From Candidatus Uhrbacteria bacterium (GTDB lineage Bacteria; Patescibacteriota; Patescibacteriia; JACRJV01): a stretch of 64,000 nt of DNA. This document shows positions 1 to 12,396 of this stretch, one piece after another. Under the pieces are notes generated by a model, which worked only from the letters and a program-made list of their open reading frames with translations, was not told the origin of the DNA and ran no database searches. The stretch lies in the NCBI GenBank assembly GCA_016215325.1, contig JACRJV010000026.1:31955-95954 (forward strand), written 5' to 3'. Each line of letters begins with the position of its first letter. Position 1 is the stretch's first letter. A program made the translations under genes and the position numbers.

Positions 1-573
1 CGAATCGGTTGCCGCAGAAACATGGCCCACAGCAGAGAGCGCCTCTTGGATAATATGCTGTTTTTGGGATTCAACATTCGGGATGCTTTGGGCAACTGAT
101 GCCGCAACCATCACCACCATGCCAAGGGTGATCACGACCAATAATTCTTTAGGCAGTGACGGAAGGAACGGATGATCTTGCAGCGCCCGCCAGAGCGCTT
201 GGCCGTGATCGGGCGATCCTTCTTCTCGACTGCTGCGCCACTGCCGATGCGTATCGCGTACGGCGCGAACCAATTGCAACGGGCTCTTGATGATCACAAT
301 GCTCCACATCCGTGCCCCGTGCATGGCTCGCGAAACAACCGCAAAGAGCCGACTGCCGATATTCCAATCGAATTCCGAGGGAGTCCACTGGGATTTGGTC
401 GACTCAAAAAAATCGAACGCCGGAGAGTGCGGTTCGGGCGCAGCGTGCTCGGGCGCTCGATTTGCCGACCGTAAATCAACCACATGCGGACTGGCTTGTC
501 CGGCCGCATTGGAGTGTGTTCCGCTGCCACTACGTACGCGGATTCGCGGTTGTGAATAATGAGGGCGATCCAT
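1..573 (-). CDS. hypothetical protein, N-terminal part (gene runs off window start); one predicted TM segment
   Basis: Manual translation of minus strand from ATG at 573 gives an open frame to position 1 (MDRPHYSQPRIRV...LLVVITLGMVVMVAASVAQ...). It is not in the ORF track because there is no in-window stop. Composition at the N-terminus is weakly protein-like. Confidence 0.25.
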   Translation of the reverse strand, partial: MDRPHYSQPRIRVRSGSGTHSNAAGQASPHVVDLRSANRAPEHAAPEPHSPAFDFFESTKSQWTPSEFDWNIGSRLFAVVSRAMHGARMWSIVIIKSPLQLVRAVRDTHRQWRSSREEGSPDHGQALWRALQDHPFLPSLPKELLVVITLGMVVMVAASVAQSIPNVESQKQHIIQEALSAVGHVSAATDS

Positions 574-586
574 GGTGATCAGGGTG

Positions 587-913
587 TCAGTGTGTTTGAA
601 GAGCGCCTAAGGCAGCGTCATCAAGGCGTTGCCAATCATCCCCTGCCCAACGGTAGAGCTCGAATACGGTGACTGTTTCATCGGCAGAATAGGTAGGTTC
701 GACAATCACCGGCGCCCCGGCGCGCCGGTTGTATGTGGTATGAGCCCCCAAAAATTTCGGCTTGATCACAAAAACCAACTTCATCTTCCCCGCTGGTGTC
801 GCCGTAATCACAGTCTGGGTGGTTGTTTGATCCGTTTGTTGAGAGTCTTCTTGCTCAATCCACCCTTGTTTACGCAATTGCTCCACCAATTGATCCCATC
901 GTTCTTGGGTCAT
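587..913 (-). CDS. hypothetical protein (ORF extends to 991; internal Met MTQERWDQLVEQLRK is the likely start)
   Basis: ORF track 587..991. No recognisable domain. Confidence 0.35.
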   Translation of the reverse strand: MTQERWDQLVEQLRKQGWIEQEDSQQTDQTTTQTVITATPAGKMKLVFVIKPKFLGAHTTYNRRAGAPVIVEPTYSADETVTVFELYRWAGDDWQRLDDAALGALQTH

Positions 914-991
914 AGAGAAATTGTAACCAAAAACTGTTAAGACGATCTCGCTTAACAGTTGTATTATACCACAAACCTCGTTCAGACACAC

Positions 992-2821
992 TCACGGGGT
1001 TGGACTGTCCACAGCAGGTATGCTCTCTGATGGGGCCGCCTCCGGCGCTGCCGGGGGTTTGGGCACTCCAACCAAGAATTGCTCTGGCCAAGGGCAGTAG
1101 AAGCTTTTGAAAACCTTGGTTTCGACACGACCATCCGGATAATTGATGGTATAAGTGGCGACAGCAGAACCGCCCGGATGCGCGCGCTCAATCTGTTTGA
1201 CCTTGCCTTCGGGCAGCGTTTCGGTAGGGATGCGAATCGCCGGACCTGCGGGACTGGTGGTGAGCGTTGTCGGCCCTTCGATCGTTGACGTGCGGCCATC
1301 CGTGGTACCGTAAAATTCAAACACAACTCTGGTGCCGCTCACATAACCGTGCAACAGCATCGGACTGCCCGTATCATTAACGAAGCGGAAATCGGGGTTT
1401 GGGCTATAGATGGTCGCATCCAATCCCGGACCAATGGTGTTGCCATCACCATCTTTTTCGTAATAGCTTACGCGGTAGGAATGATTTTGGCGAGCGGTGA
1501 TAGGCAACCCCGCATTCATTACGGCGCGGAAGAGGGTTGTGGAAACTTGGCACAGCCCTCCGCCGAATTCTGGTATGGTCCGATTCTGTTTGATGACCAG
1601 CTCGGGAAGATACCCCGTGGTGTTATCAATGCGGCCCAGCGCCTTAATGGTGGAAAACTCTTCGCCCGGAGCAATGAGAAGCCCATTCAAAAATTTGACC
1701 CCGTTTTTGATGTTGCTGATACGGTTCGGGGGGCTGCCGGCAAACGACGTCACCGCTCGGCCAATGAGTTCGCGGATGCCGCTGGCTTGGGCTTGAGCAT
1801 TAAACCCGGTGGGTTTCGCAATTTGGATATCCAAGGAGACCGCATCGTCGGATGGAGCGGCCGGGACATCGCGCCGGAGCTCCAGTGCCGCAATGATGTC
1901 AGCGATAGCTCTTTCCTGATCAAGGACACGGCCCGCGACCGGGGGCTCAAACTCAATGACCTTTTTCCCTTCGATCACTAACTTGGGCTCGCGCGGCTCG
2001 ACAGTAAGGCCGGACGCAAGGCGCGCGACGTATTGGCTCACGACCTGGCGGTCGACCTCGGCCACCAACTGGCGATCGCGAGAGCCGGAAGCCAACCATG
2101 AGCCGATTTGCTCCGGAGCAATGACGATTCCCTCATGCTCGGGAATAGTACTCTTAATCTGGAGCGGCCGACCGATCATGGAACGGGCCCCTTCGAGCGC
2201 AGCCGAGACGCTCCCCAAATCAATAACCGGTTCTTGGACAATAGTTTCAATGTTCAAACGAGGGGATTCGATCTGCTGGAGCAAGCGCGTGACTTGTTCA
2301 AGCAGCGCTTCACGATCAATCGCTCGGCCAGGCTGGGTATCCGTGGCCACCTCAACATTGCCGGCATTTACGACCAAGCGCACGTCACGCAAAGGATAGT
2401 CAACGCGCAGTGCAATTGCATCAATCACCGACACTACGGCATCGCGATTCACCTTTACCAGTGGATCGACTGTTACCCCCCCAGCCATCGCCGCAACGAC
2501 CCCCCGCACTCGTTGGGCCAATGTCCCGGACCGACCCACGCCAACGGCTTGAGCAACCGAAGTATCTACATCAACCGCATATCCAACACTCTCCAGTGCG
2601 ATGGGGTACGATGCGCCATCGACGGTGATAGTGGCCCCCTCTTGCAAAACAGTGTTGGTGCGAGTCTCGACGGCCTGCCGAGCCTGCGCCGCTGTCAGTC
2701 CCCCGACCGGGACAGATCCCACCTGCACGCTCGGCAAAATGCGCCCAGAAAACAAAAACACACTCGCCCCGGCGATCGCCACAACGATGACGCTACTAAC
2801 AATCCAGAAAGTGGGTTTCAC
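992..2821 (-). CDS. VanW domain-containing protein with N-terminal signal anchor (ORF extends to 2986; GTG at 2821 gives a K-P-T-F-W-IVSSVIVVAIAGASVFLF membrane-anchor start)
   Basis: C-terminal region YSYRVSYYEKDGDGNTIGPGLDATIYSPNPDFRFVNDTGSPMLLHGY is VanW-like. An N-terminal TM helix is present. The upstream 5' extension overlaps divergent gene 2907..3563 and is Cys-rich/AT-rich, so it is unlikely to be coding. Confidence 0.6.
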   Translation of the reverse strand: MKPTFWIVSSVIVVAIAGASVFLFSGRILPSVQVGSVPVGGLTAAQARQAVETRTNTVLQEGATITVDGASYPIALESVGYAVDVDTSVAQAVGVGRSGTLAQRVRGVVAAMAGGVTVDPLVKVNRDAVVSVIDAIALRVDYPLRDVRLVVNAGNVEVATDTQPGRAIDREALLEQVTRLLQQIESPRLNIETIVQEPVIDLGSVSAALEGARSMIGRPLQIKSTIPEHEGIVIAPEQIGSWLASGSRDRQLVAEVDRQVVSQYVARLASGLTVEPREPKLVIEGKKVIEFEPPVAGRVLDQERAIADIIAALELRRDVPAAPSDDAVSLDIQIAKPTGFNAQAQASGIRELIGRAVTSFAGSPPNRISNIKNGVKFLNGLLIAPGEEFSTIKALGRIDNTTGYLPELVIKQNRTIPEFGGGLCQVSTTLFRAVMNAGLPITARQNHSYRVSYYEKDGDGNTIGPGLDATIYSPNPDFRFVNDTGSPMLLHGYVSGTRVVFEFYGTTDGRTSTIEGPTTLTTSPAGPAIRIPTETLPEGKVKQIERAHPGGSAVATYTINYPDGRVETKVFKSFYCPWPEQFLVGVPKPPAAPEAAPSESIPAVDSPTP

Positions 2822-2906
2822 AATACTATGGTGAGGATTATGTTGTATACTATCACCATATAATCCACATATCAACGCCCTGCCCAAAATATTAACACAC
2901 AAGCTT

Positions 2907-3563
2907 ATGTTGATATATGGCATCACCATGCAGGGGAAAAAGGAAGAAGTGCCCTCCGACGTTGCGGCATGGTTGGTTGATCGCATGAAAAAATATCCAA
3001 CGGTGGATTTTACAATTGATCGCGATGAAATGACGCGATTGAGTCCGCAACATCGAGAGCAAACGGCTGAGCTGATGAAGAAATTTTCTCGATTCTTTTA
3101 TCCCGAGCATAAGACGAGAGGAGAGAATGGTGTTCTTATAGTTGTCTTCCCGTACCAAAACGAAATATGGAGTGTACGGATCACCGGCGGCTTAGACGGC
3201 GAAGGAAATATCATTGGAAGGAGCGATCCTGAAATCAATACGAAGCTAAAACGACCGCTCCCTGCGCAACTGCGAAATGATATTGCAGGACTAACGGAAG
3301 AGAAAAATATTGAACAAGTCCAAGTCGGCGGCAACGAGGGCTTCAGGGCAAAAGTAAGAAGAGAAGATGAGCCATTGTTGAGCGAGCCAAGGGAGTTTTT
3401 TCCACTGCCGGCAGAACTCAAATGGTTATCGGAGATGACGATGAGCGGTGAACAATTCAATAATTTGATGAGTAGCCCCGAGAAAAAAGAGAGGGTAGTA
3501 AAGGCGTTGTACGAAAAAGATTGGGGTGCCTTACGAAAACTGAGAGGCGAGGAGTTGCCTTGA
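2907..3563 (+). CDS. hypothetical protein
   Basis: 218-aa ORF on the plus strand with protein-like composition, divergent from the VanW gene. No recognisable motif. Confidence 0.45.
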   Translation: MLIYGITMQGKKEEVPSDVAAWLVDRMKKYPTVDFTIDRDEMTRLSPQHREQTAELMKKFSRFFYPEHKTRGENGVLIVVFPYQNEIWSVRITGGLDGEGNIIGRSDPEINTKLKRPLPAQLRNDIAGLTEEKNIEQVQVGGNEGFRAKVRREDEPLLSEPREFFPLPAELKWLSEMTMSGEQFNNLMSSPEKKERVVKALYEKDWGALRKLRGEELP

Positions 3564-3617: not shown

Positions 3618-4493
3618 CTACCGTGAACGGACTTGGGCTTGACTCTTGGCCGACCGGCCGAACGCCGCGATCACATAGCCGGTGGTGTACGATGGGGATC
3701 CCCCGAGCTGGGCAGAGTTGACTACATCAAACACTTGCGCTGTTGTGGCCCCTCGGGCTTTGACAAAGGAGAGCAGCGCCGCAAGGCTCTGCTGGGAATC
3801 CGTGTCGACCAATTCCACCGCATCGACAGCAAGAGTTTTTAATAATTGCGCGCTCTTGCGCTCGCGGGCGGCGGCGGATTCTGCCGAATGATAATGCGAG
3901 AAGTCAATACTGGCGATCACGATTGCGTCCTTTGGCAACACCCGTGCAAGGGTCTTGCCCAATGCTTGGGCTTGGGCCACAGAATACGTCGAAGAGATCG
4001 CAATGGGGACAATCCGTGCCCCGGGGAATATCGCAGCAATCGGCTGCACTTGGGAATAGATGGAATGTTCAATGTTAAACAGTGCGGAGGTTTCTGGCAG
4101 CGGTACCTGCTGTTGGAGTGTTGTAATTGCTCCCCGATCCGCCTGCACAATCCCAAAGCGTGTTTGAAATGAATCGGTGGTCGTCACGATCGGCCACCCC
4201 CCAATGTCCTGGTGATTCGGCCCCAAGACCACAAACGTTCGCGGGCGAGTCAGAGCCGACAACCCCTTGTACAATGCAATGTTCAAGCCCATGGCATTGG
4301 GAATGTGATGGCTCACGATTGCGCCGTCCACGCGCGAGAATCCCAAAACAGAATACGGACGACGGCCACCGTTGTTGCGCGTGAGCAACCGCTCAACAAC
4401 CGAATCACGCACATCATGCACCCGCACGGCACGGGAAGGCAGTGCGGGTGCAGTGAGTACGATTGCGCTCAGCAGCACGGCAGAGAGCATCAT
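3618..4493 (-). CDS. MEMO1 family protein (AmmeMemoRadiSam system protein B-like) with predicted N-terminal signal peptide
   Basis: Motifs GPNH, EHS, SIDFSHYH match the MEMO1/LigB-like fold signature. N-terminus MMLSAVLLSAIVLTAPALPSRA is signal-peptide-like. The ATGA at 4490-4493 overlaps the stop of the upstream giant gene (translational coupling). Confidence 0.7.
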   Translation of the reverse strand: MMLSAVLLSAIVLTAPALPSRAVRVHDVRDSVVERLLTRNNGGRRPYSVLGFSRVDGAIVSHHIPNAMGLNIALYKGLSALTRPRTFVVLGPNHQDIGGWPIVTTTDSFQTRFGIVQADRGAITTLQQQVPLPETSALFNIEHSIYSQVQPIAAIFPGARIVPIAISSTYSVAQAQALGKTLARVLPKDAIVIASIDFSHYHSAESAAARERKSAQLLKTLAVDAVELVDTDSQQSLAALLSFVKARGATTAQVFDVVNSAQLGGSPSYTTGYVIAAFGRSAKSQAQVRSR

Positions 4494-7400
4494 TGGATGA
4501 CAAATGGATTATCCGGACCAAAGTTGTACTGATCGGGGTGCAGAATCCCGCGGATATTAGGGCCGTCTGCACGGAAGGTTCCTTGCTGGACCGCACGGGC
4601 ACGGTACACCACCGTCTGGGTGTTGCTGCCCCGCGGACCTTTGCCCACATGCAGGCGAACGATTTGGCCCTCGATTTCTTGGATGCCAACAATGCGCACG
4701 TCTTCGTCCTGCCGTCCCCCATCACCGAAATAGGTGATCGCGGAGGTGGGCTTGAGCCCTGAAGGCAAGTAGTCGGTGATCACATAGTCATTCTCCTCAC
4801 TACTCGGATCGATGCGATAGGTGAGGACCACATCCACCGTATCACCGACTCGCGTGACTGCCCCACCGCTGCTGCGATTACGATACCGGCGCTCAACCGA
4901 TAGTTTTGGATTGCGCGCCCCGTCATAGGTAACGGCCGGGAGGCGGGCGAACGAAACAACAGATGCAGAACCCTTGAGGTTCTTAATCGACAATTGTGAA
5001 AGTTCTTCCGCGGTGACTTCGACCGACTGATCACGCACCTGCCCATCCAGGCGCACGGCAATGGTGCGGGAACCGGCAACCAAATCAAACGTGGTCTCGG
5101 TCGATGGTGGCGCCGAAATACCCTGTGCGCGTACCCGAGCGGCTGCCCACAGCTCAAAATCGATCAAGTCTGAATCCCCTGCCCGTGCCTTACTATAGGC
5201 GTATTCAGAAAGCGCTTGGGCATCGGGGCTGCCAACAGCGATCGCCACGCTCACGGCCAATGCGCTCTGACGCAATGTCTGGACCTGATTGTCCCCGGGG
5301 ATCACGGCACTGGCGGCTTCGCGTGTAATCGATGGAGCAATGTGATCCTCAAAAATTGCCCGGGACTGATCGGTGGCACCCAAATTTTGGAAGCTTGCGG
5401 CAAGATAAATCCAATCTCCGACCGAAAGATCAGAACGCGAAGATAATTGCTCCAACTGTGGGAGGATTGCTGCCCGGACGGCGGAGAGGCCGTAGAATAC
5501 TTTTGCCGCAATGTGGACATCGCCAGTTTCTCCCGCTGCTATCTGTGAGAGCAAATATCGTTTTACCGACCCGGAATCATACAGGGTAGATTGGGGCAGA
5601 GCATTGACAAGACCAATGGTGGCATCCAAGTCACTGCTGCCATACGGCACGACAGCAACACCGCCATCCGGTTGTCTGTACGGGGTAATATCGGCCGTGT
5701 CCGCCGCGGGCGCGCTGCAGGACTGTTGGAAGTTCGGCAACAGTTCTTTGGCGACGCGGGGGCCCACCTCCCATTCGAGCCGCACGCCATCCGCATAGCA
5801 GGATTGCTGGAGATGGCTGACCAACGCGGCATCAGTTTGGTCGATAATGGTGAGTGTTGTGGTGCCGCTGGGGTTGCCCTTGATTGATAGTTTGCCGTCC
5901 TTGACCGATTGGCGATCCACTCGAAGTGCAACTTTATGCGAGCGGCGCACAGATATAACGCGCTCGATCGCATCGCGAAGCCCACCGGCAATGCCTTCAA
6001 TCGACACGCGGTGTTCCCCTTCAGGCAAAGCGCCCAAGGGAATATTGACCTGCGCAGTGCCGCTGACTGTTTTATCCAGGTTGAGCGTCGGACTTTTAAT
6101 GGAATATTGGACAGTGCTGGGGGGTTGCCCAGTGGCGGTTGCAGAGCGCACGACCATCACCGGTGCATCGCCCACAAGATACACTTCATTGAGAATCGAC
6201 CGGACAAAAAATGGCAAGTTGGTCGTAATCGATTTTATCGCAGACCCAAAATACAGATCACTGCTGGCCGCCTGCAACCGCACCCTCCAACCGGTGAGGT
6301 TGTCGGGCAGAGGAATCGTGAATTCGGTGCGTCCGTCGTTGTCGGTATCCTGCGTTGCCACAAATGCGGTATTCTTAAAATTCTTGCGTACATCCCCCAC
6401 CGGCAACCCACGGCTCCCATCCCCGCCCCCGCGTTCGGCACCCAACTGGTTGCCAGAAAACCCATACCGCAATTCAAACGGATGGGAAGTGCGCGTCTGG
6501 ATATCATAGACAAACCCGCGATAAGTTTCGGTCAGCACAGTATCGTCATACCCATAGAGGCTATAGAGTGCTTCGTCCACGAGGGTGAGTTCGGTGTTGG
6601 AAAGCTTGCCCTGCCCATCCGGCGTGGTCACCCGAGCGCGCGCCACGGCGCGATCCCCCGGGCGGTACGACGCTTTATCAAATTGGAGATCAATCGTGAG
6701 CTTGCGATCCTCCGTATCAAGCGAAAACGTGGCTTGCTCAATCCGTTGGAATCCCCGCGGCCCCCAAAATATTCCGCCGACCACCAACGTCGGGATGTCC
6801 CGCGCCAAAAATGTGTCTTTATAATTTGCTTCTGTTTGGACGGTGACGGATTCGATCCCAGAGCCCGATGCACGATATAGCAATACCTGCTGACCCGCGA
6901 TGGCAACCGGCTCGTTGCGTTCGTTAACGACCTGGGCTGTTATGGGCTGGCCGACCTTATAGAGTGCAGGAGTCCATTGGTCTTTACTATTGGCCAATAC
7001 CGGGTTCACGCGCAGATAACCGGGCTGTTGATCGGTGTCGCTCGATCGCAAGAACGAAGAAAAATACCACCCGGAAACATACCGATGCTCAAGAACCAGA
7101 CGGCCATTTGGGTCCACAGTCGAAAAACTCACTTTATACCAACCGTTTGTTTTTTTCACTGTCACAGAATAATCAACAGCCCCATTGCTATTGGTAAGCA
7201 AAGGGGGATGAGCCACCGCTACTTCTTCGACGCGCTCGACATACTCATGCACCGGATAGGTTGTCTTGGTAATAGGGTCAAACCGGCGTTCTTTGACGAC
7301 GGCTTCGGTCCAATGGTAATCAACGGTCACGTTGATTGTTGCATTTGCAAGCGGTGAGCCGACATAGTTCGTTTCGGCTGGTTTCGACAAATCGATCGTT

Positions 7401-9547
7401 GATGTCTTCACGTGGAACGTCGTTGTTTTCTCCTTCTGCTCGCTGTCGATATCCATCATAATAGTCGGCCCATAGACGCCGAACGATGCGCTCGCCGTAA
7501 TCTCCGCTTCTTCTTGTTCTACCGGCGAAACAGATAGATAGGCATAGTACGGGTACGATGTGGTCAGCACATATTGGGGCTTGAGCCGGAGCACGGCGTT
7601 ACCGGAAGCATCCAATCGCACTCGCCCGGTTACGCTCTGGGGAATATTGCCAGAGTATTGGAGATCCATGAGCCCCACTGGTTCGCCGCTAAAAAAACGC
7701 GCTTGAATATCGAGAGCGATTTCATCACCGACAAACAGTGCGTCTCGTTTCGGCATGACGGTGATTTGATACGAAGGCTTCGTGAACGTGGCGACTTCAA
7801 TGCCTTTATCCAAGAGCACTTGATCACCCTGGCGCATGCGCACGGAGTAATACCCCGGTTTGAGGGTATTGATCGCGAGTTTCCCGCTGAAGGTGTTTTG
7901 ACGACTGATTCGACCCGTTGTGGTGGCATAGACAGGAATTGACTGTGACTCGCCCCCCGGCCCGAAGTATTGATTGTACAACCCTTCAAACCCCCAAAAC
8001 TGTTGGTCAATGAGCTCGATCGTCACTTCCTGGTCGGCCATCGTTTTGCCGGGGGCGCTCACAACACCCCAAACCCACACCTCATCGGTGGGCAAATACA
8101 TCTTTCGATCGGTGGAAAGAAAACTGTACATGCGCTCCTGGGGCGCAACACGGACATCATCCACCGGAATAAACGCCACATCAGTGCCAGCGCTCACTTG
8201 CACCAGCGCACCGATCCCATGGGCGCTGCTGGATGCCTCCCGCTCTGGAGGTGATGAATATTTCCATTGTTCAGGCGTAGCAAACTGCGCAACCCCCCGG
8301 TCATCGGTTTGCGCGAGTGGCACAGAGGAACTCGCCACGGTGGCGTTGGCAACGCCCGTGGATTCGTCTATTTTACGGACCCAGAGCACGGATTGCGATT
8401 CGCTCACTGACAGCGCCGTGTGCAATGGAGTCACCTGGAACCACAAAAATTGACCCCCACCGGTGGCCTGGGGTGCCATCAACAGATACTGCCCGCCCTG
8501 GAGGCTTGTTGGCAAGACCAGCCGTGCCGATGTTTGGCTTTCTTCCTCTGCAGTAAAGGTTGCTGCAAAGGTGCTTACGCGGTTGCGTTCAGGCGGCGCG
8601 TACCGGGGATTGTAGAGACCATAGATACTCCATTGATTCTCGAAGATCATGGATTTCTTCCATTCTTGCTCAAATTCAGACGGATCAAAACGATAGAGTT
8701 CAAAATTCCACTTACGCTTGAGGGCATGCTCATTAACCGAAACGTAAAATGTTGGGCTTTGGCGATCAAAATCGGGCAACGTGCTATCGCTATAGATATA
8801 CCAATAGCTTGGATCCTTCGATTCTTGAGCACCAGGGGTTGTTGCCGGATCTGCCTCTGTTTCGAACGAAACAACAATATCATCGGAGAGCGTATCCTTC
8901 CCATCTTGCTTGGGGAGGGCCGCAAAACCGCTCTTTAACCGGAATGTATAGACCGTGCGGTACTGAAGCTTCTGCTGCGGCGTAACAACAACTCGATTAT
9001 TGTCGACCTCCACTGCTGCGGGTATTGCGGGATCCAAACTCCAAAGACCATCGACTGAACCCAATTGCGGGCGATTGAATTGGAGCTCGATGCCGGTATC
9101 AATGGGCACGCGGGTTGCCAGATGCCGCGGAACCGAAGAAATAAGCGCCAAATTCGATTTGGTTTGGATCGCAAAGGAAACCGGTGCGGCAGAGCCGTTA
9201 GCAGCCGCCAAGGCAATGGTATATACGGTGTTTTCTTTCAGCGGCGCGTTGGCCGTAATTTCAAAAATGTTGGACGTTTGCGCAACGGGCTTGACAGTGA
9301 CATCTGTTGCAGGGGTCACGCGCAAATTCTCCTGCACCTGGACGCTGGTCATCGCGCCTTCGGTCTGTAAATAAATTTTACTGTTTGCGTCCATGATGCG
9401 GCTGGTATTGCCAATCGCGGTGGTATAGAGTTGATACCCCCCAGAGGCCACGGGCTTACTCCCCTTCCGCATTGCCAGAAACCCTCCGGCAACAATCAAC
9501 AACAAGACAACGATCACAGTGAGTGTTCGTTTTATGCCATGAGACAT
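4490..9547 (-). CDS. alpha-2-macroglobulin family large surface protein with N-terminal membrane anchor and apparent thioester-less TED (ORF extends to 9598)
   Basis: About 1700 aa; N-terminal TM TLTVIVVLLLIVAGG. A2M-domain-like block NLTGWRVRLQAASSDLYFGSAIKSITTNLPFFVRSILNEVYLVGD. Helical TED-like region where PYGSSDLDAT sits in place of PxGCGEQxM. C-terminal VITDYLPSGLKP resembles the bacterial A2M MG10/RBD motif (xxEDxLPAGxE). The size fits ECAM/YfhM-type proteins. Confidence 0.55.
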   Translation of the reverse strand: MSHGIKRTLTVIVVLLLIVAGGFLAMRKGSKPVASGGYQLYTTAIGNTSRIMDANSKIYLQTEGAMTSVQVQENLRVTPATDVTVKPVAQTSNIFEITANAPLKENTVYTIALAAANGSAAPVSFAIQTKSNLALISSVPRHLATRVPIDTGIELQFNRPQLGSVDGLWSLDPAIPAAVEVDNNRVVVTPQQKLQYRTVYTFRLKSGFAALPKQDGKDTLSDDIVVSFETEADPATTPGAQESKDPSYWYIYSDSTLPDFDRQSPTFYVSVNEHALKRKWNFELYRFDPSEFEQEWKKSMIFENQWSIYGLYNPRYAPPERNRVSTFAATFTAEEESQTSARLVLPTSLQGGQYLLMAPQATGGGQFLWFQVTPLHTALSVSESQSVLWVRKIDESTGVANATVASSSVPLAQTDDRGVAQFATPEQWKYSSPPEREASSSAHGIGALVQVSAGTDVAFIPVDDVRVAPQERMYSFLSTDRKMYLPTDEVWVWGVVSAPGKTMADQEVTIELIDQQFWGFEGLYNQYFGPGGESQSIPVYATTTGRISRQNTFSGKLAINTLKPGYYSVRMRQGDQVLLDKGIEVATFTKPSYQITVMPKRDALFVGDEIALDIQARFFSGEPVGLMDLQYSGNIPQSVTGRVRLDASGNAVLRLKPQYVLTTSYPYYAYLSVSPVEQEEAEITASASFGVYGPTIMMDIDSEQKEKTTTFHVKTSTIDLSKPAETNYVGSPLANATINVTVDYHWTEAVVKERRFDPITKTTYPVHEYVERVEEVAVAHPPLLTNSNGAVDYSVTVKKTNGWYKVSFSTVDPNGRLVLEHRYVSGWYFSSFLRSSDTDQQPGYLRVNPVLANSKDQWTPALYKVGQPITAQVVNERNEPVAIAGQQVLLYRASGSGIESVTVQTEANYKDTFLARDIPTLVVGGIFWGPRGFQRIEQATFSLDTEDRKLTIDLQFDKASYRPGDRAVARARVTTPDGQGKLSNTELTLVDEALYSLYGYDDTVLTETYRGFVYDIQTRTSHPFELRYGFSGNQLGAERGGGDGSRGLPVGDVRKNFKNTAFVATQDTDNDGRTEFTIPLPDNLTGWRVRLQAASSDLYFGSAIKSITTNLPFFVRSILNEVYLVGDAPVMVVRSATATGQPPSTVQYSIKSPTLNLDKTVSGTAQVNIPLGALPEGEHRVSIEGIAGGLRDAIERVISVRRSHKVALRVDRQSVKDGKLSIKGNPSGTTTLTIIDQTDAALVSHLQQSCYADGVRLEWEVGPRVAKELLPNFQQSCSAPAADTADITPYRQPDGGVAVVPYGSSDLDATIGLVNALPQSTLYDSGSVKRYLLSQIAAGETGDVHIAAKVFYGLSAVRAAILPQLEQLSSRSDLSVGDWIYLAASFQNLGATDQSRAIFEDHIAPSITREAASAVIPGDNQVQTLRQSALAVSVAIAVGSPDAQALSEYAYSKARAGDSDLIDFELWAAARVRAQGISAPPSTETTFDLVAGSRTIAVRLDGQVRDQSVEVTAEELSQLSIKNLKGSASVVSFARLPAVTYDGARNPKLSVERRYRNRSSGGAVTRVGDTVDVVLTYRIDPSSEENDYVITDYLPSGLKPTSAITYFGDGGRQDEDVRIVGIQEIEGQIVRLHVGKGPRGSNTQTVVYRARAVQQGTFRADGPNIRGILHPDQYNFGPDNPFVIQ

Positions 9548-9641
9548 AGGATGATCGCCGGTAATACCGGGAGTGCGAAGAAATAAGCCTACTCGCACAA
9601 TATCATTTTTTTTCGTATAATGGCAACATCAATGCAATATC

Positions 9642-9705: not shown

Positions 9706-10410
9706 ATGTGCTTCTCCCCCAAAGTCACCCTCGCCACATTCGTACTCGAATGGAGCCTTGCAATTTGGGCATGGATCCAATACCGCTACCACCGGTTTGG
9801 CCAACTGGCTATAGCACTGCTTGTGCTGCTCGGGTTCTACCAATGGAGCGAGTATGCGATTTGCCGCGGGTCCAATCCGGTCGACTGGGCGCGGCTGGGG
9901 TTTGCCGCGGTGGGCTTTATGCCGGCCATTGGGCTCCACTTGATTATGCTCTTTGATAAACAAAAACCCGGACGCACGCATGTCGAAACCGTCACGCGCT
10001 ATTTGGTGCCGATCGGATATGCCCTGGCGAGCCTGTGGGCGCTGGTGTTTTGGGTCGAACCCGCTGTGATCCGCTCGGCCACCTGCATGCCAAATTTTAT
10101 CCTGTACGGCAAAAGCATGAGGCCCTACACATGGTTCGGGTATTACTATACGACCCTGATCGCCTGGTCGCTGGTCGCAATGGCAGCGCTGCGCGAACGT
10201 ACCGCCGGTGCTTTGCGGTCGGCGACCAACTGGTTGGCAATTGGGTATCTCTCGTTTATCATCCCCACCTATCTCGTGATCTTTATGTTTCCAAAGATGA
10301 TACCGGGGTTCCCGAGCGTCCTGTGCGGATTTGCCGTGATCCTCGCAATCATTATGGTCAAAAAAGTATTGCCGGAATACGAAAAGACCCATCGGGATAT
10401 GAGGATATAA
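9706..10410 (+). CDS. 7-TM integral membrane protein (receptor-like), unknown function
   Basis: 234-aa ORF with seven hydrophobic helices. The antisense ORF 9676..10392 is His/Arg-rich low complexity, so the plus-strand gene is taken as the real one. Confidence 0.6.
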   Translation: MCFSPKVTLATFVLEWSLAIWAWIQYRYHRFGQLAIALLVLLGFYQWSEYAICRGSNPVDWARLGFAAVGFMPAIGLHLIMLFDKQKPGRTHVETVTRYLVPIGYALASLWALVFWVEPAVIRSATCMPNFILYGKSMRPYTWFGYYYTTLIAWSLVAMAALRERTAGALRSATNWLAIGYLSFIIPTYLVIFMFPKMIPGFPSVLCGFAVILAIIMVKKVLPEYEKTHRDMRI

Positions 10411-10500: not shown

Positions 10501-12396
10501 TCACGCGCGCTCGAGCAGCTTGGCAGTCGGGTAGACTCGGAAGAGTTCGTGCTCATCCGGTACGCCCTTGAGGGCCACCGCCCCCATGGCCTCCACTCGG
10601 ATGAGCCCGTCGCGCTTGAGCGCCTGCACGCGCGGGCCCTCTCGGACAGCCTGGGACACGACCACATGGTCACCCAGTTCAAGGTCGACCTTGCCCTCAA
10701 GCCGTGCGGCGAAGTTGACGATCGAATTCATGATGTCAAACTGCCGCACAATGCTCGAGCCCAAGAAAACCGACCCATAGTGGAGCCCGAACCGAGCACG
10801 GAATGGGAGACCGCTTGTGTGGATCTCGTGCTGGGCCTGGAGCCAAGCCAGCACGCCGTCGCTGCGACGCCGAAACAAGGCCATGATGCCGTCGCCGGTG
10901 GTCTTGAGCACTGCCCCGTGGTAGCTCTCGACCCACTTCTCGAGGATGAGCATCGCTCTTCGGACCGTGATCGCCGCCTGGACTTGGTCTTGTGCCAGCG
11001 CCCAGAATGTCGTGGATTTCTCCAAGTCGCAGAAACCCACAGCCCCTGAACCCATCGACAGTCCGGCCACAACTTCCCACGGAAGGCACTCGCTGGGGAA
11101 GTTGTAGCGGAATTCGCCGAGCATGACGAGGTCCAATGCCGAGACCATGTCTACCCGCCAGGCCTCTTGCTCGATCACGACTACGGCTTTCTTGCCGGTA
11201 TAATTGACCAAGCAGAGTGTTTGGCGTGGGTAGGCGATCGAATGCTCTAACTTCACCTGATCTCCACGATGGAGCACCACAGTGAATAGGTCGCCGGGGT
11301 CTGATCCTGCGACGACCTCGAACCGTGATTCGGCCGAACTGCCGAGTACCCGGATCCGGTACCACCCTGATTCCAGTGGCGACGAAAACCGACGCATGAT
11401 TCCGTCGCACGCCACGTCCGGATCCAGCTCGAGCTCGAGCTGGATGTGCTGCGAGTGCATAGGGCTGGACAGACAGTGTGTCGGCTGCTGGGATCTCCGG
11501 GGCTTTGCGATGTTCGGATTCGCTCCGGCGACCACTTCCAGTGTCTGATGGAGTGTGAGCGGGTAACGCGCCGCGCACGACTCGCAAGGAACAACCGGGT
11601 TGATGGCCTTGAACGTTGTCTTGGTCTCCTTCACCCCACGACAACTCTGACAGATGCTGTCGTAGTGGATAGTGACCAAATCGCGCGTTGCCATCAGCAC
11701 GAGCGCTTTGAGCACAGCGTGCCAATCCAAGCCCTGAGCTTGCGCCCGCTCGCGTGGCCGAATGGTTTCGTAGGTCTCGAGCCATTCAACAATTGTATCC
11801 CAGAGCTTCGGCTCGATCTTCTGTTGCTCGATCACAAGCGCTTGTCGGGCCGCGGCGATCTTCTTTGCAGCGCCCCACCGCAACTTGCGGTGCTTGGGTG
11901 GCGAGGGCCGGCTGTTGATCTGCCAGTCGTAGATCCAGAACTGGATCTTGAACCGCAAGAGCACCACGCGCAGAAGCAGCCACCCAACCAGCCACAACAG
12001 GACGTTGGGCTGGTGGCACTCAAGTTGGTACTTGAGCAAGCTCCTGCACTTGGGCCGATCGGCGTTGTAGGGAAACCCCGTTAACTGCATCCGGGCCGTG
12101 AACATCTTTGCCCAGAGGATCGGAATGAACCAGAACAAGTAGACTGTGAAATCCTCCCGTCGGAACAAGAAGTACTGCTCACTCACCCACTCGGCTTTGC
12201 GCTCGACCCACTCGACGCGCAAGAACCGGCCGATGATCTTCTGGACCACGAGCGGCTCGAAGCCGACCCCTCGCTCGATCTTCTGGATGCCGTTGTCCTG
12301 GTTGAACTGCTCAGTGTCGGCCGACTTTGGCCAGAACATCCCGACCGTGGACCACAGCCATACCTGGATGGATGCCGAGATTTTTGTCGTGGACAT
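10501..12396 (-). CDS. membrane-anchored class III nucleotidyl (adenylate/guanylate) cyclase with central CxxC...CxxC zinc-ribbon-like segment; high-GC, probably horizontally acquired
   Basis: C-terminal catalytic domain motifs: FCDLEKSTTFW (metal Asp), AVLKTTGDGIMALF (second Asp and substrate Lys), NSIVNFAARLE (Asn/Arg). The N-terminus has about three TM helices. GC is about 60% with GC3-rich codons (GTC/GAC/CTC/AAG), against roughly 53% in the flanking DNA. Confidence 0.75.
   Translation of the reverse strand: MSTTKISASIQVWLWSTVGMFWPKSADTEQFNQDNGIQKIERGVGFEPLVVQKIIGRFLRVEWVERKAEWVSEQYFLFRREDFTVYLFWFIPILWAKMFTARMQLTGFPYNADRPKCRSLLKYQLECHQPNVLLWLVGWLLLRVVLLRFKIQFWIYDWQINSRPSPPKHRKLRWGAAKKIAAARQALVIEQQKIEPKLWDTIVEWLETYETIRPRERAQAQGLDWHAVLKALVLMATRDLVTIHYDSICQSCRGVKETKTTFKAINPVVPCESCAARYPLTLHQTLEVVAGANPNIAKPRRSQQPTHCLSSPMHSQHIQLELELDPDVACDGIMRRFSSPLESGWYRIRVLGSSAESRFEVVAGSDPGDLFTVVLHRGDQVKLEHSIAYPRQTLCLVNYTGKKAVVVIEQEAWRVDMVSALDLVMLGEFRYNFPSECLPWEVVAGLSMGSGAVGFCDLEKSTTFWALAQDQVQAAITVRRAMLILEKWVESYHGAVLKTTGDGIMALFRRRSDGVLAWLQAQHEIHTSGLPFRARFGLHYGSVFLGSSIVRQFDIMNSIVNFAARLEGKVDLELGDHVVVSQAVREGPRVQALKRDGLIRVEAMGAVALKGVPDEHELFRVYPTAKLLERA

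Follow-up and report, generated by a model that had tools for sequence, protein, structure and literature searches.

A conserved gene pair for a thioester-less alpha-2-macroglobulin-like protein and a Memo-family protein in Candidatus Uhrbacteria and other bacteria

Two types of bacterial alpha-2-macroglobulins (A2Ms) have been described, both from Gram-negative bacteria (PMC5764988). Type I proteins carry the thioester motif CxEQ and are encoded in an operon with PBP1c, whereas Type II proteins (MagD/YfaS) have no CxEQ and belong to the six-gene mag operon (PMC5764988). Once its bait has been cleaved, MagD traps a protease non-covalently, and it needs MagB for its stability and membrane localisation (PMC5764988). 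In the Candidate Phyla Radiation (CPR), the large A2M-domain membrane proteins Vamp_6_203 and Vamp_19_245 of Vampirococcus lugosii were proposed to act in defence against host proteases; they are mentioned in passing, and no Memo partner, thioester status or operon is described for them (PMC8080830). Here, we analysed a stretch of 64,000 nucleotides from a Candidatus Uhrbacteria bacterium (contig JACRJV010000026.1, positions 31,955 to 95,954; hereafter the window), in which the gene of a giant A2M-like protein overlaps that of a Memo-family protein. The locus is genuine and conserved and represents a variant of bacterial macroglobulin systems that has apparently not been described before; the A2M-Memo pair looks like a third type of such a system. 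An earlier note on this DNA had regarded the pairing as not previously described. This view is shared by us, as no paper dealing with a macroglobulin together with a Memo-like protein was found in the literature searched and both described A2M operon types differ from the locus. Coordinates of all features are listed in Table 1.

The open reading frame (ORF) of the larger protein spans positions 4490..9598 on the minus strand (1702 codons from the first GTG), and translation from the ATG at position 9547 yields 1685 amino acids. The 1685-aa protein is 100% identical to an NCBI entry (P0009) named 'Ig-like domain-containing protein'. Homologues at E values of 0 to 1e-125 exclude that this 5.1-kb ORF is a chance occurrence. 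The earlier note had assigned the protein to the A2M superfamily from strings in its translation (NLTGWRVRLQAASSDLYFGS, PFFVRSILNEVYLVGD, DYLPSGLKP and PYGSSDLDAT). All of them are present, and hidden Markov models (HMMs), a profile comparison with solved structures and the predicted fold agree with the assignment. Pfam models of A2M and MG domains recognise the protein, with bMG10 (3e-7) and A2M (2e-5) above the cut-off, as is Big_5 (2e-12). Matches to MG2, bMG3 and A2M_BRD do not reach it; in relatives, significance is clear for BRD and MG2 (A2M_BRD 5.6e-10 to 1.8e-15 in P0015 and L049).

A PDB search with the single sequence gave a marginal match only (E=0.016). A profile of 13 family members, in turn, matched Salmonella SaA2M (4u48, 2e-23), E. 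coli ECAM (4e-22 to 6e-22) and human A2M (~3e-14 to 4e-14), and also TEP1, CD109 and C5. The AlphaFold2 (AF2) model of residues 486-1685 (predicted local distance difference test score, pLDDT, 75; predicted template-modelling score, pTM, 0.54) consists, in this order, of β-sandwich domains, a low-pLDDT segment, MG7, about 11 helices (TED) and C-terminal β-domains. Foldseek searches with this model returned ECAM (5a42, 3e-53), SaA2M (1.5e-50) and CD109 (1e-46), in alignments spanning ~1350-1460 columns (ECAM and SaA2M ~1380).

The MG7 core aligns with human and frog A2M, and D1082, T1085, W1087 and R1088 are invariant in the family alignment. By the family profile, the TED-like region corresponds to SaA2M TED residues 1224-1639 and the ITDYLPSGLKP region to the SaA2M segment 'VDLLPAGLE'. 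The N-terminus reads MSHGIKR-TLTVIVVLLLIVAGGFLAM-RK and has the character of a signal-anchor. Support for an N-in, ectodomain-out topology comes from relatives in which a cytoplasmic N-terminal extension of anti-sigma-like character precedes this hydrophobic segment; upstream of these relatives, an overlapping gene for an extracytoplasmic function (ECF) sigma factor is found.

When aligned with canonical A2Ms, the (Y)GCxEQ motif falls on (D)GVRLEW, where Arg1256 occupies the column of the Cys. CxEQ was found in none of 13 family members (the window protein and its 12 closest relatives); canonical bacterial A2Ms from the same search have it. Among 116 family members of the fetched loci, the site follows the pattern G-x-R-[LVI]-[DE]-Q, with G conserved in 109, R in 114, D/E in 112 and Q in 87 of them. 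CxEQ is replaced by Rx(D/E)Q across the family, and the window protein has RLEW. Judged from these alignments, the A2M-like protein is thioester-less through a specific, conserved replacement. The absence of the thioester proposed in the earlier note therefore stands (Arg in 114/116), but its suggestion that PYGSSDLDAT takes the place of CGEQ does not: this string aligns with the 'GGWGWW..D...LTAY' hairpin located ~50 residues past the thioester, and HMMER aligns the region with SaA2M residues from 1224.

Three Memo-paired A2Ms keep a canonical YPYGCVEQ or YPYGCNEQ motif (L015 2629-7764, Limisphaerales; L056 3-3017; L041 3-2213, Saccharibacteria). The association with Memo is thus one of A2M proteins generally and not only of the Arg variant. 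In the window protein, two Cys (QQSC...QQSC, residues ~1247-1285, window 5690-5810) flank the helix bearing the Arg motif. They are kept in P0010-P0012, other family members are without them, and the pattern suggests a clade-specific disulfide in an extracytoplasmic TED.

The second protein is a member of the Memo family according to Pfam (PF01875, 2.3e-19, 70.1 bits at a cut-off of 27) and TIGR04336 (AmmeMemoSam_B, 7e-25, 87.8 bits at a cut-off of 26). It is identical to an NCBI protein from a metagenome-assembled genome of Candidatus Uhrbacteria (CPR/Patescibacteria). The PDB search with its single sequence yielded no match. Its AF2 model has a pLDDT of 92.1, and the top five Foldseek hits are all human MEMO1 (7l5c, 7kq8 and 3bcz; Cu- and Fe-bound forms included) at ~1e-14 and a TM-score of 0.69, followed by LigB-type extradiol dioxygenases (1e-7). 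The MEMO1 fold named in the earlier note is hence confirmed, and GPNH, EHS and SIDFSHYH are all present in the 291-aa product.

In MEMO1, the metal is bound by His49, His81 and Cys244, and a C244S mutant loses it (PMC11081632). The first two ligands have His counterparts in the window protein, and Asp232 stands in the column of the third (Table 1). All of 42 diverse subfamily members keep H62, H94, H143, D197, H200 and D232; for Asp232, the same invariance was observed in a set of 31 members. A 2-His-1-carboxylate site (His/His/Asp) of the dioxygenase-like kind is predicted from this pattern. The subfamily is large: among the 9832 Memo matches in 1.84 billion representatives, it accounts for ~1500 clusters (50% identity; E ≤ 1e-30). 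To our knowledge, no molecular function has been established for the Memo family, human MEMO1 included.

The Memo-like product begins with MMLSAVLLSAIVLTAPALP, and this N-terminal segment is kept in orthologues. A mis-called start is excluded by a stop five codons upstream in the same frame, and MMLSAV... is the real N-terminus. Canonical Memo proteins start with the strand 'M(I)R.PAVAG.FYP', which is replaced by a signal sequence in the exported subfamily. A hydrophobic N-terminal stretch, usually preceded by K/R, was observed in 75 of 76 A2M-paired Memo-like proteins and a lipobox (LLSGC, LTGC, AACS etc.) in 18 of them; canonical Memo has neither feature. In the clade of the window, the Memo start is a conserved hydrophobic segment of 13-15 residues free of basic residues. 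Judging by these N-termini, export of the subfamily is well supported and that of the window's own protein is plausible. Accordingly, the signal peptide claimed in the earlier note holds for the subfamily and is weaker for the window protein, where the basic n-region is missing.

The two genes are joined at ...atc caa tga / ATG ATG ctc, with a 4-nt overlap between the first ATG (4493-4491) and the TGA (4492-4490); the ATGA coupling given in the earlier note can be read directly in the sequence. Such proximity recurs: among 76 related pairs, the genes overlap in 35 cases, in 25 of them by exactly 4 nt, and a gap of 0-30 nt separates them in 20 more, so that 55/76 are overlapping or at most 30 nt apart. 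A scan of GTDB species representatives with a Memo alignment returned 245 relatives, of which the best 80 loci were analysed. In 34 of these, an A2M-like gene lies directly upstream on the same strand. Hosts of the pair include many Patescibacteria, one Limisphaerales metagenome-assembled genome (Verrucomicrobium) and Bacillota, the latter comprising Oscillospiraceae, Clostridiaceae, Desulfitobacteriaceae, Pseudobacteroides cellulosolvens ATCC 35603 and Tepidanaerobacter GT38.

Starting from the A2M side, a metagenome scan with a 7-sequence alignment provided 80 loci, 60 of them with enough downstream DNA. A Memo gene directly follows the A2M-like gene in 41 of the 60. Even beside an A2M-like gene of 26% identity, with an ECF sigma gene upstream and DNA polymerase I downstream, the Memo gene still overlaps the A2M stop. 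The flanking genes are housekeeping genes which differ by lineage, and no further family is common to different phyla. Since the flanks are not conserved between phyla, conservation of the pair cannot be put down to mere synteny inertia. No alternative conserved partner was found in the 19-21 A2M-like loci without Memo. Taken together, the pair is conserved in at least three phyla with unrelated flanks, and the co-occurrence in other genomes by which the earlier note had proposed to check it is evident from both scans.

Compared to the described types, the window protein resembles Type II proteins (MagD of Pseudomonas aeruginosa, YfaS of E. coli) in having an A2M architecture with a bait (putative in the window protein) but no CxEQ, and the locus resembles theirs in its cytoplasmic-membrane association and co-encoded dedicated partners. 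However, MagD is a soluble periplasmic protein whose gene is part of an operon of six genes without Memo, whereas the window protein has its own transmembrane (TM) anchor and a single Memo partner. Type II hosts are Gram-negative, while hosts of the A2M-Memo pair are CPR or monoderm bacteria, with Rx(D/E)Q at the thioester site. Similarity to YfaS-type proteins is local only (P0025 and P0031, 9-47% coverage), and no families of the magABCDEF or yfaSTAQP type occur among the flanking families common to at least two loci.

Type I proteins (ECAM/YfhM, SaA2M) are the best profile and fold matches. They share bMG3, MG2, BRD, MG7, TED and bMG10 with the window protein, and both are membrane-tethered and extracytoplasmic. 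Type I is paired with a peptidoglycan enzyme; the pair in the window clade lies beside a gene for a predicted VanW-type LD-transpeptidase. On the other hand, Type I proteins are lipoproteins that trap covalently through CxEQ and are encoded with pbpC, whereas the window protein has no Cys at this site and a TM anchor instead of a lipobox. PBP families are absent from the flanking genes of the window and of the 34 paired loci.

With MEMO1/Memo (PF01875, LigB superfamily), the partner shares the fold and the motifs HH, GPNH, EHS and DFSHY. It differs in that, in its subfamily, the N-terminal strand has given way to a signal, a lipobox or an anchor and Cys244 to Asp, and in that this subfamily is genetically tied to A2M-like or PGA_cap domains, whereas canonical Memo is tied to AMMECR1 and radical SAM proteins. 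Public names hide the system: the macroglobulin appears as 'Ig-like domain-containing protein' and its partner as 'AmmeMemoRadiSam system protein B' (P0001 and many relatives), a name which is misleading for an exported Memo.

A disordered Gly-rich linker, corresponding to model residues 524-566 and protein residues 1009-1051 (translation verified), takes the position of a bait, and the family profile aligns it with the SaA2M segment just ahead of MG7. In the three closest relatives of the window protein, a HINT domain (~127-128 aa; Pfam PT-HINT/Vint/Hint) sits exactly in this linker, with the borders GAERGG/CFGYGSR...YVHN/AEKGGG. Overall, HINT domains between BRD and MG7 were observed in ~18 distinct A2M genes, all Memo-paired and including the thioester-bearing Limisphaerales protein (e.g. 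P0010, residues 1053-1181; L003 3222-8672; L004/L092; L087 2117-7768; L015 2629-7764), with the flanks AE[RG]GG/CF..GT ... VHN/[DEAQN]KGG. Every HINT has Cys1 and a terminal His-Asn, and the next residue is Asp, Glu, Ala, Gln or Asn, never Cys, Ser or Thr. Since this +1 nucleophile is missing, autocleavage as in bacterial-intein-like domains seems the more probable outcome, rather than splicing. In the window protein the HINT is missing, and the site reads GAERGG-GDGSR-GLP (6395-6440). GDGSR resembles the HINT start GYGSR, so that the window linker looks like a deletion derivative of the HINT-bearing form. Chain scission at the bait position may be built into some A2M-like members.

Where no A2M gene lies alongside, members of the Memo subfamily mostly have a C-terminal PGA_cap domain (CapA/PgsA-like, capsule synthesis) fused to Memo, in proteins of ~600 aa. 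These fusions account for 33 of the best 80 loci, mostly from Patescibacteria and without an A2M neighbour (L014 7806-9572, L022 7830-9578, L029 7824-9581, L068 2240-4096 and ~29 further loci). In L013, L041 and L090, an A2M-like gene is followed by such a fusion. No paper on the combination of Memo and PGA_cap was found in the literature searched.

A minority of loci have an ECF sigma-70 gene directly before the A2M-like gene, often overlapping it (L008 9546-10004, L087 1585-2154, L090 1678-2259, L132 3320-3862, L143 4697-5227). The A2M-like proteins P0014 and P0015 carry an anti-sigma-like cytoplasmic N-extension of 50-70 residues, which suggests that some members double as anti-sigma sensors. 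As a general logic of the system, sigma/anti-sigma regulation is ruled out, the arrangement being confined to a handful of loci.

By analogy with MagD, a Type II A2M that is likewise thioester-less and partner-dependent, we favour, albeit tentatively and with a confidence a little short of even, a reading of the locus as a protease trap or envelope guard that is tethered to the membrane, works non-covalently and has a Memo-like protein as stoichiometric partner. The protease-trap or defence module considered in the earlier note is plausible by this analogy. While the identities, domain order, missing thioester, gene coupling, export signals of the subfamily and conservation of the pair are shown by the data, the function is inferred. 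The locus is a two-gene cell-envelope operon. Its first gene encodes a type-II membrane-anchored protein with a short cytoplasmic N-tail, one TM helix and an ectodomain of ~1650 residues, the latter composed of Ig-like and MG domains, a BRD with the disordered Gly-rich linker, MG7, the helical TED and the C-terminal bMG10. The second, ATGA-coupled gene encodes a Memo/LigB-fold protein that would reach this compartment by export or be held there by a lipid anchor. In cells that lack an outer membrane, the A2M-like protein would trap proteases non-covalently at the external side of the cytoplasmic membrane. The Memo-like protein, a stoichiometric partner made in step with the trap, would stabilise or position it, or act enzymatically on the trap or on captured material. 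The cell-wall cluster of the window clade (VanW, DUF4012 and, in relatives, MurC/MurB) echoes the 'trap and repair' combination of A2M and PBP1c in Gram-negative bacteria.

Several observations speak against such a trap. No Memo gene was detected within the available sequence (up to 8 kb) in 19 of the 60 A2M-like metagenome loci, so either not every A2M-like protein needs the partner or the gene for it lies elsewhere. The PGA_cap fusions without A2M imply that Memo has an envelope role of its own and is not a dedicated A2M chaperone. True A2M baits are usually variable in sequence, and the linker has a semi-conserved GAExGGG motif. Finally, the window's Memo-like protein has an h-region without a basic n-region and without a lipobox.

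A bolder form of the proposal is unlikely in our view. The Memo-like protein would be an extracytoplasmic 2-His-1-Asp metalloenzyme working on its macroglobulin partner, making the pair an enzyme-armed two-component system. It might process the GAExGGG linker, or else create or substitute the reactive group that disappeared along with the thioester (Rx(D/E)Q), and in some lineages a self-cleaving HINT at the linker would hard-wire the same step. If true, this would be the first defined biochemical role for the Memo family, and bacterial A2M systems would gain a third class, characteristic of bacteria that lack an outer membrane.

The main rival to the trap, which we nevertheless consider doubtful, is an envelope-polymer or cell-wall module; the PGA_cap fusions and the cell-wall neighbours of the window clade favour it. 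Memo would here be the catalytic part, an extracytoplasmic 2-His-1-Asp metalloenzyme with peptidoglycan, a lipid-linked precursor or a polymer of the capsule-like or gamma-glutamyl kind as its substrate, and the A2M-like protein would be a large scaffold or shield holding it in position and not a protease inhibitor. The abundance of the fusions (33/80 loci), their occurrence behind an A2M-like gene in at least three loci and the MurA-like gene downstream of the pair in Oscillospiraceae fit this explanation, and the invariance of the His/His/Asp, Glu-His and Asp-x-x-His residues hints at enzymatic activity. Yet the A2M-like protein keeps the entire trap architecture (BRD, TED, MG10), which a mere scaffold would not need, and the cell-wall neighbours are lineage-specific. 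Besides, a substrate cannot be named, and many hosts are strict anaerobes, unlike what the dioxygenase chemistry of the nearest enzymatic relatives would lead one to expect. A further explanation, an improbable one, takes the A2M-like protein as an extracytoplasmic sensor of proteolytic or envelope damage, in which cleavage of the linker causes a conformational change signalled across the membrane to an ECF sigma factor or, in the window's clade, perhaps to the neighbouring cyclase, with Memo as co-sensor. The sigma genes upstream in P0014, P0015/L008, L087, L090, L132 and L143, the anti-sigma-like extension in P0014 and P0015 (those checked) and the DUF5939-cyclase gene conserved upstream in the window's clade would all find a place in it. 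However, the sigma gene occurs in a small minority of loci, to which support for a sensor is confined, and the window protein has a 6-residue cytoplasmic tail with no anti-sigma region. The cyclase neighbours the A2M-like gene in this clade only, and a membrane-protein gene of opposite orientation lies between the two.

We give equally little weight to a surface adhesin or host-interaction protein of episymbiotic CPR bacteria whose MG/Ig repeats would serve in attachment or shield against host proteases, with Memo as an unrelated neighbour. The proposal for the Vampirococcus A2M-domain membrane proteins (PMC8080830) and the two Big_5 Ig-like domains at the N-terminus point in this direction, but the same pair is found in free-living Firmicutes and a Verrucomicrobium, and the tight spacing of 55 of 76 pairs amid differing flanks is unexpected for an incidental neighbour. 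Least probable by far is that the Memo-like protein is subunit B of an AmmeMemoRadiSam system and that its adjacency to A2M is irrelevant. The clear TIGR04336 match and the NCBI naming of P0001 and many relatives would suggest this. Against it, searches with the AMMECR1 half of fusions P0007 and P0061 found no AMMECR1 homologue in the 64-kb window or in 170 loci. The system is cytoplasmic, in contrast to the exported subfamily, in which Asp replaces the Cys ligand and a signal sequence the 'PAVAGxFYP' strand. We reject this candidate based on the export and on the missing AMMECR1 gene in the surroundings. A radical-SAM activase was likewise absent from the flanking families common to at least two loci, although no search was aimed at it.

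Whether trap or not, the pair represents a large unannotated third macroglobulin arrangement in CPR bacteria, Firmicutes and a Verrucomicrobium, with its own Rx(D/E)Q signature and a single conserved Memo partner. Its presence in the cultured organisms Pseudobacteroides cellulosolvens ATCC 35603 and Tepidanaerobacter sp. GT38 makes both the role of a thioester-less macroglobulin on a monoderm surface and the role of Memo experimentally approachable. HINT insertions at the bait position and Memo-CapA fusions offer further handles on the system.

Table 1 Features of the A2M-Memo locus and its surroundings, with positions in the window
Feature	Position	Strand	Basis or remark
A2M-like giant membrane protein gene	4490..9547	-	1685 aa + TGA stop 4490-4492
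N-terminal signal-anchor RTLTVIVVLLLIVAGGFLAMR	9467..9529	-	residues ~7-27, read from translation
Big_5 bacterial Ig-like domain (one of two stretches)	8858..9154	-	PF13205 2.3e-12, the better one at ORF residues 149-247
A2M bait-region-domain (BRD)-like segment	6557..6964	-	A2M_BRD E=0.0037, below cut-off
Disordered Gly-rich bait-like linker, …GAERGGGDGSRGLPVG	6395..6523	-	pLDDT 23-43
A2M (MG7) core, LPDNLTGWR…LPFFV	6200..6361	-	PF00207 1.8e-5, above cut-off
TED-like all-helical domain, ~11 helices	5123..5830	-	model residues 755-990
Thioester-site counterpart GVRLEW, Arg1256 for Cys	5771..5788	-	MAFFT with canonical CxEQ A2Ms; codons verified
bMG10 C-terminal domain, ITDYLPSGLKP motif	4553..4903	-	PF17973 3e-7, above cut-off
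ATGA stop/start overlap	4490..4493	-	sequence
Exported Memo-family protein gene (export of the window protein plausible)	3618..4493	-	291 aa + stop
Hydrophobic N-terminal export signal/anchor (putative) MMLSAVLLSAIVLTAPALPSRA	4428..4493	-	translation; pLDDT <50-67, residues 1-20
His62-His63, counterpart of MEMO1 His49	4305..4310	-	invariant in subfamily alignment; codons verified
His94 of GPNH, counterpart of MEMO1 His81	4212..4214	-	invariant; codon verified
Asp232, column of MEMO1 Cys244 (third ligand)	3798..3800	-	alignment with canonical Memo P0006, P0008; codon verified
DUF5939 + class III nucleotide cyclase	10501..12396	-	Pfam; orthologues in L003, L005
234-aa polytopic membrane protein	9706-10410	+	no Pfam family; divergent from A2M-like gene
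Candidate promoter TTGCCA-N18-TATTGT with TG	9597..9626	-	consensus scan, 5' of A2M-like gene
218-aa ORF	2907-3563	+	no Pfam or PADLOC match
VanW-domain protein	992..2986	-	Pfam VanW 5e-38 + PG_binding_4 1e-21
~105-aa protein, clade-specific cluster	590..991	-	phmmer 3.8e-36 to L003 105-aa gene
DUF4012 protein, cut at window edge	1..606	-	phmmer 5e-15 to L003 DUF4012 gene

The gene order in the window is cyclase, 234-aa protein, A2M-like protein, Memo-like protein, 218-aa ORF, VanW, ~105-aa protein and DUF4012, all on the minus strand except the 234-aa and 218-aa frames. In the four closest relatives, the order is cyclase, A2M, Memo (4-nt overlap), VanW, 105-aa protein, DUF4012, a CLIPPER-like gene and MurC/MurB. 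The DUF5939-cyclase upstream of the A2M-like gene is kept in the clade. Using PADLOC, no defence-model match was obtained for the A2M-like, Memo-like and VanW proteins, and an anti-phage defence system is ruled out on this basis. The cyclase alone matches PycC, the Pycsar cyclase model, weakly (2.5e-6), which probably reflects the shared cyclase fold alone. The 234-aa ORF is genuine and conserved, as a gene of 63% identity sits at the same position in L003. Promoter-like sites are no more numerous in the region than expected from shuffled sequence, and the one ahead of the A2M-like gene is a consensus match and candidate only.

The VanW domain defines a family of LD-transpeptidases (PMC11348318). 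The window's VanW protein combines this domain with a peptidoglycan-binding domain (Pfam), and an LD-transpeptidase role is predicted for it from the family. Its orthologues have 598-605 aa, and the real start is probably ~60 codons downstream of the listed ATG. The VanW gene that the earlier note had placed near the pair is thus present, but it is not a conserved member of it: VanW adjoins the pair only in L002-L006, the window's own narrow clade, and was ruled out as part of the conserved unit. In the clade-specific cluster further downstream, relatives encode a ~830-aa fusion of a MurC-like Mur ligase with MurB (FAD_binding_4 + MurB_C; L003 16078-18600, L004 17446-19929), i.e. two peptidoglycan-precursor enzymes in one protein.

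In Oscillospiraceae and related Bacillota (L016, L018, L027, L030, L038, L040, L050, L066), a MurA-like gene (EPSP_synthase family) lies downstream of the pair and is followed by a convergent gene for an HtrA-like serine protease (Trypsin_2 + PDZ). A secreted protease beside a putative protease trap is possibly of note; as parts of the module, both genes were set aside as probable lineage synteny of Oscillospiraceae-type loci. The slot between Memo and VanW, 16-93 nt long in L003, L004 and L006, is occupied by the opposite-strand 218-aa ORF in the window and by an island with T5orf172, an AAA_15 ATPase and a tyrosine integrase in L002 (3242-7237). It appears to be an insertion hot spot.

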